The notes beneath the pieces were generated by a model, which was not told where the DNA came from, did not search any database, and was given only the letters and a program-made list of their open reading frames with translations. Source: Candidatus Eiseniibacteriota bacterium (GTDB taxonomy: Bacteria; Eisenbacteria; RBG-16-71-46). From it: DNA of 64,000 bases. A program made the position numbers and the translations under genes. The DNA is taken from assembly GCA_033853925.1 (NCBI GenBank), contig JAWOLC010000001.1:4658-68657 (forward strand), given 5' to 3'. This document shows positions 14,541-16,762 of this stretch, piece by piece; the first letter of the stretch is position 1, and every line of letters begins with the position of its first letter.

Positions 14541-16046
14541 ATGCTCCCCGTCATGCGAGACGCGATCGTCGCCCTCTTCACCCGCACCTTCGGGCGCCGC
14601 CCGGAGGGGATCGAGCGGCTGGCCGCCGACGGCTCCCAGCGCCTCTACTACCGGCTGACCGGCGCTCCGCCGGCCTCCGTGATCGGCGCCTTCGGCCCCG
14701 ACGCGGACGAGAACCGCGCCTTCCTGTCGTTCTCCCGCACGTTCCGCGGCCTCGGCCTGCCGGTCCCGGAGATCTACGCCGCCGACGACAACCTCGGGAT
14801 CTGGCTGGCCGAGGACCTGGGCGACACGACGCTCTTCCAGGCGGTGTCCAGCGCGCGCGAGGAGGACCGCTGGCCCGGGAGCCTGGTGGAGGCGTACGGG
14901 CGCGTGCTCGACCTCCTGCCGCGCTTCCAGGTCGAGGGCGGCCGCGCCATCGACTTCGGCGCCGCCTATCCGCGCGCGGCCTTCGACCGGCAGTCCATGC
15001 TGTGGGATCTGAACTACTTCAAGTACCACTTCCTCAAGCTGGCCCACGTTCCCTTCAGCGAGCAGCTCCTCGAGAACGACTTCCATCGGCTCATCGAGCA
15101 TCTCCTCACCGCGGAGGCGGGCTACTTTCTCTATCGCGACTTCCAATCGCGCAACGTCCTGCTGCGCGGCGGCGCGCCGTGGTTCATCGACTACCAGGGT
15201 GGCCGCCGGGGCGCGGCCCAGTACGACGTGGCCTCGCTGCTCTACGACGCCAAGGCGAACGTCCCCGAAGGCGTGCGCGCGCAGCTCCTCGCCCGCTACG
15301 TGAGCACGTTCTCGCGGCTCGCGGACGTGGACCCCGGGCGCTTCCTCGAGACCTACCGGGGCTTCGTGCTCATCCGCATCATGCAGGCCATGGGCGCGTA
15401 CGGCTACCGTGGGTTCTTCGAGCGCAAGCCTCGCTTCCTGGAGAGCGTCCCCTACGCCGCGCGCAACGTGGCCGGACTCCTCCGCGCGGGCTTGCCGGTG
15501 GAGCTGCCCGAGCTGGAGTGCGTTTTCCGGCGCATCGTCGAGACCTGGGCCGATCGTCCCGGCCCGCTCGCGTCCCCGGGCCTCACCGTCCACGTCACGA
15601 GCTTCAGCTACCGGGACGGCCCGCCACTGGACGAGATGGGGCACGGCGGGGGTTTCGTCTTCGATTGCCGCTCGCTGCCCAATCCCGGTCGGTTCGCCCA
15701 GTACTCCGGCGTGAGCGGCGAGGACGCCTCGGTCGCCCGCTACCTCGAGGCCGTGCCGGAGACCGAGGCGTTCTGGAGCCACGTCGTCTCGCTCGTCGAG
15801 GCGCACATCGCCAGCTTCCGGCAGCGGGGCTTCTCCGACCTCAGCGTCGCCTTCGGCTGCACGGGCGGCCAGCATCGCTCCGTCTACTTCGCCGCGCGCC
15901 TGGCCCGCCATCTGCGCGAGCGCCACGGCGACCTGGCCGTGCGCCTCTGCCACGCGGCGGAGGCCTGCTGGACCGTCGCGGCGGCCGAGCCGAGCGCGCC
16001 GCCTCCCGCGGAGCCCGTCTCCGGAGATCCCTGGTGGAGGGGATGA
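14541..16046 (+). CDS. Fusion protein: an N-terminal AmgK-like anomeric MurNAc/GlcNAc kinase domain (aminoglycoside-phosphotransferase fold) joined to a C-terminal RapZ C-terminal domain
   Basis: The N-terminal half has an APH-family Brenner motif [11 protein letters not shown] and a DYQ metal-binding motif. The C-terminal roughly 150 aa ([15 protein letters not shown]...[16 protein letters not shown]...[23 protein letters not shown]) aligns with the RapZ C-terminal domain of E. coli (FDVRFLPNPHW...AIGCTGGKHRSVY). The stop overlaps the start of the downstream MurU-like gene. Confidence 0.6.
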   Translation: [501 protein letters not shown]

Positions 16047-16762
16047 TCTTCGCCGCGGGCCTGGGATCCCGGCTCGGAGACCTCGGGCGGACGACCCCCA
16101 AGGCGCTCATCGAGATCGGCGGCCGCAACATGCTCGAGCGCGTGGCAGAGCAATTGGTCGCGGCGGGCGCGCGGCGCATCGTGGTGAACGTGCATCACCA
16201 GGCCGGGCGGATCGAGGAGTTCCTCGCCGGGCGCGATCTCGGCGTCGAGGTCCTGGTGAGCCGCGAGGAGGAGCGTCCGCTCGAGACCGGCGGCGGCCTG
16301 CTGCACGCGCGCGCCCTCTTCCGCGGCGACGACCTCATTCTCCTGCACAACGTCGACGTCCTCAGCGAGGCCCCGCTCGCCCCGCTCGTCGCCGAGCATC
16401 GGCGGAACGGGGCGCTCGCCACGCTGGCGGTCAACGAGCGGGAGACCGCGCGCTACCTGCTCTTCGACGACCTCGGCCTGCTCGGCCGGGAGGATCGGCG
16501 CCACGGGCTCCGGCGCGAGGTGCGCTCGCCCCGCGGCCCGGTGCGGACGCTCGCGTTCGCCGGAATCCACGCCTGCTCCCCGGAGCTGCTCGACCTCGTC
16601 ACGGAGCGTGGAGTCTTCCCGATCGTGGACGTCTACCTGCGCCTCGCCGCCGCCGGGCGCGTGATCGCTCCCTGGCCGCTCTCGCGCGACCTGTGGATCG
16701 AGATCGGGACGCCGGAGCGCCTCGAGGCGGCACGCGCGCGCCTCGAGAGGATCGCTCCCTGA
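16043..16762 (+). CDS. Sugar-1-phosphate nucleotidyltransferase, MurU-like (N-acetylmuramate alpha-1-phosphate uridylyltransferase candidate)
   Basis: ATG at 16043 overlaps the upstream stop (ATGA). MIFAAGLGSRLGDLGRTTPKALIEIGGRNMLE is the G-rich NTP-transferase signature. It is paired with the AmgK-like kinase as in the AmgK-MurU recycling bypass. Confidence 0.65.
   Translation: MIFAAGLGSRLGDLGRTTPKALIEIGGRNMLERVAEQLVAAGARRIVVNVHHQAGRIEEFLAGRDLGVEVLVSREEERPLETGGGLLHARALFRGDDLILLHNVDVLSEAPLAPLVAEHRRNGALATLAVNERETARYLLFDDLGLLGREDRRHGLRREVRSPRGPVRTLAFAGIHACSPELLDLVTERGVFPIVDVYLRLAAAGRVIAPWPLSRDLWIEIGTPERLEAARARLERIAP

Follow-up and report, generated by a model that had tools for sequence, protein, structure and literature searches.

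Positions 14541–16762 of a 64,000-nucleotide stretch of DNA from Candidatus Eiseniibacteriota bacterium (contig JAWOLC010000001.1; this whole stretch is hereafter the window) encode two overlapping genes that, on balance, we read as a sugar-salvage module. In this module an AmgK-like kinase, for which N-acetylmuramic acid (MurNAc) is the likeliest substrate, is joined in one polypeptide to RapZ's C-terminal domain (RapZ_C), which would serve as a ligand-binding part and not as an adaptor of RNase E, and is followed by a MurU-like transferase. The AmgK–MurU bypass has been described in Pseudomonas, Caulobacter, Legionella, and Tannerella (PMC10941766, PMC13046382, PMC11957156). In the scheme that we infer for the window, the AmgK-like domain would place a phosphate on C1 of a free amino sugar, for which MurNAc is the most probable identity and N-acetylglucosamine (GlcNAc) a possible further one, and the coupled MurU-like enzyme would convert the sugar-1-phosphate and UTP to a UDP-sugar that enters peptidoglycan synthesis. 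RapZ_C, as an integral third part without RNase E adaptor action, would most likely bind a ligand from this pathway, either a phosphorylated amino sugar or a UDP-sugar (candidates are MurNAc-6-phosphate [MurNAc-6P], glucosamine-6-phosphate [GlcN6P], the 1-phosphate product, and UDP-MurNAc/UDP-GlcNAc), and its binding would tune the output of the kinase or couple the kinase to the transferase. An earlier reading made from the DNA letters alone (the sequence-only reading) had suggested an amino-sugar-phosphate-gated recycling enzyme, and the conserved RapZ phosphate pocket described below is compatible with such gating.

The two genes and their conserved elements are laid out as follows, with residue numbers of the kinase–RapZ_C protein; conservation counts, here and throughout, come from an alignment of 78 family sequences from different phyla.

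14541–16046, forward strand: coding sequence of the two-domain kinase, 501 amino acids (aa) including Met1 (open reading frame [ORF] list, coding statistics, Pfam APH and PF22740)
14553–15548, forward strand: AmgK-like APH-fold kinase domain, residues 5–336 (Pfam, NCBIfam, 3csv, hhalign)
15132–15155, forward strand: kinase catalytic loop Y198-R-D200-F-Q-S-R-N205, read directly from the sequence; D200 and N205 in 78/78
15189–15191, forward strand: Asp217 (IDYQ), the metal-binding Asp of the APH fold, in 78/78 and aligned with the IDFQ Asp of 3csv
15549–15578, forward strand: variable inter-domain linker, residues 337–346; mean pairwise identity 0.16, with a dip to about 67 in the predicted local distance difference test (pLDDT)
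15579–15953, forward strand: RapZ C-terminal domain, residues 347–471
15639–15653, forward strand: Gly-rich loop G367-H-G-G-G371, within a 5-residue insertion between A177 and D178 of E. coli RapZ
15660–15686, forward strand: F374-D375-C-R377-x-L-P-N381-P382 motif, equivalent to E. coli F181-D182-V-R184...N188-P189
15858–15881, forward strand: phosphate-binding loop C440-T-G-G-Q-H-R446-S447, equivalent to C247-T248-G249-G250-K251-H252-R253-S254 of E. coli RapZ
15954–16043, forward strand: non-conserved C-terminal tail, residues 472–501; mean identity 0.30, pLDDT below 50 at residues 482–498
16043–16046, forward strand: ATGA stop/start overlap of the kinase gene and the transferase gene
16043–16762, forward strand: MurU-like sugar-1-phosphate nucleotidyltransferase, 239 aa (Pfam NTP_transf_3 / NTP_transferase)

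The 501-aa ORF is biased by codon position in the way that real genes of the genome are (GC content of 0.94 at third positions [GC3] and 0.49 at second positions [GC2]; the genome is about 73% GC, with a range of 70–76% across the window), and a protein identical to its product is present in a public collection as P0001. Because the N-termini of homologues align from Met5, the true start may be at 14553. Pfam places APH (PF01636) at residues 24–260 (E = 7e-13) and RapZ_C (PF22740) at residues 348–466 (E = 3e-31, 108 bits against a cutoff of 27), and phmmer against the PDB gives two non-overlapping matches on the protein, to 3csv and to E. coli RapZ. The searches bear out both the APH-fold kinase half and the RapZ_C assignment of the sequence-only reading, which had given the RapZ homology 150 C-terminal residues; the homology stands, and its extent is about 125 aa (residues 347–471), followed by the tail. 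Apparent conservation of the last 12 residues in one alignment is a gap-column artefact. The full-length AlphaFold2 (AF2) model (pLDDT 89.3; predicted TM-score [pTM] 0.73) would fit domains arranged in a defined way, although the prediction of that arrangement is not firm.

Among NCBIfam models at E<0.01, the first 340 residues matched only two, both of AmgK (62.7 and 56.5 bits), and no model of any other APH-family kinase. The only PDB sequence match of this half is 3csv, a putative aminoglycoside phosphotransferase (phmmer, residues 13–306, E = 1.6e-18), and a fold search with the AF2 model returned APH-fold kinases as its top PDB matches, with 3csv the best. The family of 3csv consists of 332-aa Rhodobacteraceae proteins that score 258–278 bits on AmgK model NF045698, and an overlapping NTP-transferase gene directly follows the kinase gene, which is the same arrangement as that of amgK–murU in Caulobacter (CCNA_03649/03650; PMC13046382). 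Comparison of profiles with hhalign aligns the fused family to this 3csv/AmgK-like family with 99.4% probability (E = 1.5e-21, 26% identity, 286 columns, residues 5–307), and the motifs LAxD(G/A)SxRxYxRL, EDLGD, RD(F/Y)xxxN, and ID(Y/F)Q...YDxxSLLxDA are common to both. The fused kinase shares the APH fold with AmgK (P. putida/P. aeruginosa, Caulobacter CCNA_03649, Legionella lpg0296) and 3csv, together with motifs that include (H/Y)RD(F/Y)xxxN and ID(F/Y)Q...YD(L/I/V)xSLLxDA, and, as in those systems, a MurU-type gene follows it, often overlapping; identity to AmgK and 3csv is only about 22–26%. Canonical AmgK is a single domain of about 330–360 aa and 38 kDa (PMC11957156), whereas the fused kinase carries an extra RapZ_C domain of 125 aa, so that the window protein, at 501 aa, and its family, consistently 455–520 aa, are longer than a single-domain AmgK. 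The sequence-only reading had also taken an HRDxxSRN motif as a hallmark of AmgK; the loop in fact reads YRDFQSRN, the generic APH motif HxDxxxxN with Tyr for His, and is not diagnostic.

The second half of the protein (residues 347–464) aligns to residues 159–271 of E. coli RapZ (phmmer against the PDB, E = 4e-14), in blocks that include YVFDVRFLPNPHW and GCTGGKHRSVY. On RapZ model NF003828 the protein scores 95.9 bits against a whole-protein cutoff of 244 and covers profile positions 159–269 of 278 only; unlike RapZ, an RNase E adaptor and GlcN6P sensor in E. coli, it has no Walker A/B P-loop N-domain, and its N-terminal 340 aa have the unrelated APH kinase fold, with the linked nucleotidyltransferase beyond. 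No second RapZ_C-like motif was found in the window. Residues C247, T248, G249, H252, and R253 of RapZ bind sulphate or malonate and form the proposed GlcN6P site (Islam et al., PMC9841335), and the isolated C-terminal domain (CTD) binds GlcN6P (PMC7073468). This pocket is kept in the fused family as C440, T441, G442, H445, and R446 in 78/78 sequences, and every one of them likewise has the C, T, G, G, H, R, and S of the phosphate loop and, in the FDxR and NP motifs also common to RapZ, D375, R377, N381, and P382 (D182, R184, N188, and P189 of RapZ). The exception is the pocket residue His190, in whose place stands G383 (75/78), followed by R384 (69/78). A second difference from RapZ is the 5-residue Gly-rich insertion, with G369–G371 in 77–78 of the 78 sequences and H or N at residue 368 in all. 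The kinase and RapZ_C domains are equally conserved, at mean pairwise identities of 0.545 and 0.538, against 0.16 in the linker.

The features with which RapZ contacts RNA are mostly missing. The RNA-contacting basic residues of the E. coli protein are K170, R184, K194, R196, R211, R238, and K251 (PMC9841335), five of which are lost in the fused family: K194 is Q or E, R196 and R211 are variable, R238 is an invariant F431, and K251 is Q444. Those that persist are R184, as R377, and a basic residue (R, K, or H) at 358, the position of K170. The basic, RNA-binding C-terminal tail of RapZ is also without a counterpart, the tail here being variable and predicted to be disordered.

The overlap of the two genes is as the sequence-only reading described it, with the TGA of the kinase gene at 16044–16046 and the ATG of the transferase gene at 16043–16045. 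Two MurU models are the best NCBIfam matches of the 239-aa ORF (NF045697, E = 4e-34, 118 bits; NF045761, E = 1.5e-27), and its best PDB match is 4y7t, a 231-aa nucleotidyl transferase (E = 1.2e-18) that we take to be MurU of P. putida. In being a minimal single-domain enzyme (about 230 aa) with an AmgK-like kinase as partner it resembles MurU (4y7t, 8hhd), but its 118 bits stand against a cutoff of 370; unlike MurU, the transferase of the fused family is, in some lineages, fused C-terminally to the kinase–RapZ_C protein. Such APH–RapZ_C–NTP_transferase polypeptides, 712–816 aa long, make up at least seven distinct 50%-identity clusters in which the order of domains is constant and the linkers differ, and near relatives of the window protein include such fusions too, with ...DG-MIFAAGLG at their junction. 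Given the ATGA overlap, an indel of one base is enough to fuse or separate the genes. We rejected the idea that the triple fusions are mere frameshift errors, since they fall into at least seven separate clusters with different linkers; P0112, however, appears frameshifted in the alignment. Gene neighbourhoods were counted over the best 80 loci of at least 600, and 55 of these 80, from about 10 phyla, have a MurU-like ORF on the same strand as their immediate downstream neighbour. No other neighbour is broadly conserved across phyla.

The fusion is widespread. Scanning one genome per GTDB species recovered the two-domain protein from at least 600 species genomes, and an exhaustive HMMER search through 1.84 billion representatives of 50%-identity clusters gave 801 at E <= 1e-30; the size of the family, its spread over many phyla, and its recurrent triple fusions were beyond what the letters alone could show. 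The top 150 of the 801 clusters are mostly full-length proteins of 455–520 aa, and the rest are shorter matches and longer fusions. A word-indexed homologue search returned at least 8000 matches, of which the best 120 all have PF22740 and nearly all have PF01636, at 60–76% identity; a second search seeded from Bacteroidales reached the same kind of saturation (at least 8000) with different proteins, and among the matches listed there were only unnamed or 'phosphotransferase' proteins from metagenome-assembled genomes. The best 80 loci match from about query residue 5 to about 460–490 at 46–67% identity, two of them ending at a contig edge, and their record titles name Eisenbacteria, Gemmatimonadota/Longimicrobiales, Bacteroidota, Calditrichota, Ignavibacteriales, Elusimicrobia, Acidobacteriota, Marinimicrobia, Planctomycetota, Lentisphaeria, Opitutaceae, Methylomirabilis, and Deferribacteres. 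Carriers of the two-domain protein thus include phyla of the Planctomycetes–Verrucomicrobia–Chlamydiae (PVC) group, and there are cultured carriers among the Bacteroidota (Mariniphaga anaerophila DSM 26910 and Maribellus sediminis Y2-1-60); the nearest named relatives of the window protein are from Eisenbacteria (65–67%). An assembly artefact was rejected as the source of the fusion, the same architecture being present in thousands of proteins from independent sources.

Depending on the source, members of the family are annotated as 'phosphotransferase', as 'RapZ C-terminal domain-containing protein', or, which is misleading, as 'RNase adapter RapZ'. In the literature searched we found no paper that describes an APH–RapZ_C fusion, and none that names both AmgK and RapZ; structural papers on RapZ (including PMC7073468 and PMC9841335) do not mention the fusion. 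Precomputed Pfam annotations and certain automatic names already show the architecture, but it is uncharacterised, and what would be new here is an AmgK–MurU salvage module with an integrated RapZ_C domain.

Some members of the family and some loci depart from the usual pattern. Three close relatives of the kinase half, P0249 (624 aa), P0274 (345 aa), and P0389 (350 aa), have no detectable RapZ_C; they may be pieces cut off at contig ends, calls disturbed by a frameshift, or kinases that truly stand alone. At a series of Prolixibacteraceae loci (L035, L037, L039, L048, L049, L052, L053, L055, L058, L072, and L076) the MurU-like neighbour is replaced: a conserved membrane-anchored protein of 240 aa is encoded divergently, about 60–70 nucleotides (nt) upstream on the opposite strand, and a 236-aa protein about 150–270 nt downstream. 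In Bacteroidales locus L081 (7342–7989), as in L082 and L083, all from metagenome contigs, the gene immediately upstream of the fused kinase gene, stopping 11 nt short of it, encodes a 215-aa haloacid dehalogenase (HAD) hydrolase that is of phosphoglycolate-phosphatase/MupP type, and upstream of this gene lies an rmlC-like dTDP_sugar_isom gene. No such HAD gene was seen next to the fused kinase in the other loci sampled, and the match is not specific to MupP; the pair in L081–L083 is a possible MupP–AmgK-like pairing.

Several observations weigh against the salvage-module reading. In most Prolixibacteraceae and Bacteroidales loci no MurU-like gene was found within 5 kb, and within about 8 kb of the gene pair in the window no other peptidoglycan-recycling genes were seen. 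The pTM of the AF2 model gives only moderate confidence in the packing of the domains. Both enzymes score far below the equivalog cutoffs of their families: the kinase reaches 62.7 of 550 bits on NF045759 and 56.5 of 500 on NF045698, and the transferase 118 of 370 on NF045697. The assignment of the kinase to AmgK in the sequence-only reading is upheld as to the nearest family, which is not that of an unrelated APH kinase, and as judged from these comparisons 'AmgK' names that nearest family and not a demonstrated identity. For the transferase, mannose-1-phosphate guanylyltransferases (E = 2e-14) are about as good a match as 8hhd, the second of the structures named MurU (E = 2.3e-14); with these matches, and with both proteins below their cutoffs, the sugar could be other than MurNAc. 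Finally, a helical segment of the kinase, residues 144–168 (window 14970–15044), is near-invariant across all phyla with the fusion and unlike canonical AmgK; it is likely part of the substrate site, and may form the sugar site or an interface with RapZ_C.

The low scores, the guanylyltransferase matches, and the divergent substrate-side helical region suit an alternative in which the kinase and transferase activate some other sugar, for a polysaccharide, lipopolysaccharide (LPS), or glycoprotein pathway, and RapZ_C senses an intermediate of that pathway; genes for a lipid A acyltransferase and a GT2 glycosyltransferase 4–6 kb downstream are in keeping with it. We regard this alternative as possible though rather unlikely. 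AmgK and MurU are the top and the only specific family matches of the two proteins, and accepted AmgK orthologues are themselves only 30–39% identical to one another, with the Caulobacter and P. aeruginosa proteins at about 30% (PMC13046382). The cutoffs are also strict, because the 3csv family, which is linked to a MurU gene, fails them too, at 278 bits. Both NCBIfam AmgK models are 324–360 positions long and the fused proteins score 49–63 bits on them; the exemplars of the models therefore lie outside the fused family. Moreover, the pair is conserved over about 10 phyla in varying housekeeping contexts, which a core role in the cell wall fits better than does a variable glycan.

A parallel to the module is found in the RapZ homologue YvcJ, which binds UDP-GlcNAc and whose contact with GlmR depends on this UDP-sugar (PMC7525490); GlmR, encoded in the same conserved operon, is reported to be an accessory GlcNAc-1-phosphate uridyltransferase (PMC10128056). 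As in the fused module, YvcJ–GlmR of Firmicutes and Actinobacteria sets a protein with a kinase fold and RapZ_C beside a gene for an amino-sugar-1-phosphate uridylyltransferase, but the folds differ, with a P-loop domain in place of APH and a CofD-like GlmR in place of the Rossmann-type MurU. We know of no sugar-kinase activity for YvcJ, and the parallel is best taken as an analogy and not as established homology of the two systems. A wider account, which we advance tentatively and with low expectation, would make RapZ_C the working part of an ancient machine of kinase fold, RapZ_C, and sugar-1-phosphate uridylyltransferase that processes or hands over a phosphosugar, the same logic lying behind YvcJ–GlmR and behind the later recruitment of RapZ for small RNA control in enterobacteria. 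In such an account RapZ_C might be a Cys-x5-Arg phosphatase acting on MurNAc-6P, or else a gate for a product or UDP-sugar, docked onto MurU.

The first of these versions can also be held on its own. RapZ_C would then be a Cys-based sugar-phosphate phosphatase that replaces MupP and converts MurNAc-6P to MurNAc, so that a single polypeptide would move the phosphate from C6 to C1. A C-x5-R-(S/T) loop is the signature of Cys-dependent phosphatases of the protein tyrosine phosphatase (PTP)-like kind. The fused protein fits it exactly in C440-TGGQH-R446-S447, which the AF2 model places on a strand-loop-helix element, between strand 433–440 and helix 446–461, and which is invariant along with D375. 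Phosphatase activity is reported for YvcJ and HpaP, both homologues of RapZ (PMC7525490), the RapZ-CTD binds a sugar 6-phosphate (PMC7073468), and a RapZ-CTD crystal soaked in GlcN6P contained a 'chemically transformed product' in the pocket (PMC9841335). However, the activity of YvcJ may lie in either of its domains, the fold evidence for a phosphatase is weak, and at the Bacteroidales locus with the MupP-type HAD gene 11 nt upstream a built-in phosphatase would be redundant; on this evidence such an enzyme seems unlikely.

Another possibility is that RapZ_C is mainly structural, mediating dimerisation of the kinase or its docking onto the uridylyltransferase, with the pocket kept for folding or as an interface. 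The RapZ-CTD does dimerise alone, and its dimerisation is abolished by D182A (PMC7073468), at the position of the invariant D375; YvcJ contacts the uridylyltransferase-active GlmR (PMC7525490, PMC10128056), and in every triple fusion RapZ_C stands between kinase and transferase. We nevertheless think a mainly structural role quite improbable, since a whole pocket retained in 78/78 sequences and a family-specific Gly-rich loop exceed the needs of a scaffold, and such a role does not in itself exclude ligand binding. A RapZ-type RNA-binding adaptor or regulator, in which APH replaces the P-loop domain for post-transcriptional control of amino-sugar synthesis, was offered in part by the sequence-only reading and draws on the contact of the RapZ pocket with the GlmZ backbone (PMC9841335), on the retained R377 and basic residue at 358, and on the 'RNase adapter RapZ' labels, but can be set aside as very improbable: the basic residues at K194, R196, R211, R238 (an invariant F431), and K251 are not conserved, the P-loop domain and the basic tail are gone, and the intact catalytic residues of the kinase and the fusion to a transferase point to an enzyme.

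In the window, the pair lies in a run of housekeeping genes on one strand, in the order SurA/PpiC-like gene, a 481-aa ORF, mutL, miaA, kinase, transferase, tRNA-Gly(ccc), der, plsY, gpsA, a MerR-family gene, tRNA-Pro, lipid A acyltransferase, GT2 glycosyltransferase, and surE. The end of miaA is 54 nt upstream of the kinase gene, an adjacency unique to the window among the 80 loci. A scan of 13400–17100 for promoters and terminators found none and is uninformative at 73% GC; the operon ends after the MurU-like gene, because a tRNA gene follows 129 nt past its stop. The tRNA genes of this region are as follows.

16891–16966, forward strand: tRNA-Gly(ccc), 129 nt after the MurU-like stop
20687–20763 and 23920–23996, forward strand: two tRNA-Pro genes (ggg, cgg)

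Other features of the window stand apart from the module. The der/engA gene (16906–18386, forward strand) has a frameshifted look, with the shift near 17350–17430: its first GTPase domain (...LLVDTGGF) is in ORF 16906..17433, and its second GTPase and KH-like domains are in ORF 17232..18386. The shift is probably an assembly indel and possibly a real pseudogene. The 481-aa ORF between the SurA/PpiC-like gene and mutL (10136–11581, forward strand) has a GC3 of 0.93 and no Pfam match at E<=1e-5, and the SurA-N plus PpiC-rotamase protein before it (6794/7076–10066, forward strand) is unusually long, about 1000 aa, with a long extension past the rotamase domain. Three long ORFs, at 34168–38610 and 42517–43290 on the reverse strand and 61695–62474 on the forward strand, have GC1 of 0.87–0.90 and GC3 of 0.68–0.75, whereas other genes have a GC3 of at least 0.85; these three may be shadow ORFs, or else genes of unusual composition.

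The AmgK–MurU bypass underlies intrinsic fosfomycin resistance, and it is the standard tool for metabolic labelling of the cell wall with MurNAc. On the salvage-module reading, which we favour, the dominant form in Bacteroidota, Gemmatimonadota, Acidobacteriota, and related phyla is a distinct AmgK-like family into which a phosphosugar-binding domain is built, and this suggests that the salvage of peptidoglycan sugars in those phyla is regulated or organised unlike the Pseudomonas model. Outside enterobacteria, the widely conserved RapZ/YvcJ family has, to our knowledge, no established ancestral role. The recurrent fusion of RapZ_C to an amino-sugar kinase and a uridylyltransferase would provide independent 'Rosetta-stone' evidence that the core job of the domain concerns amino-sugar phosphates or UDP-sugars, not RNA.

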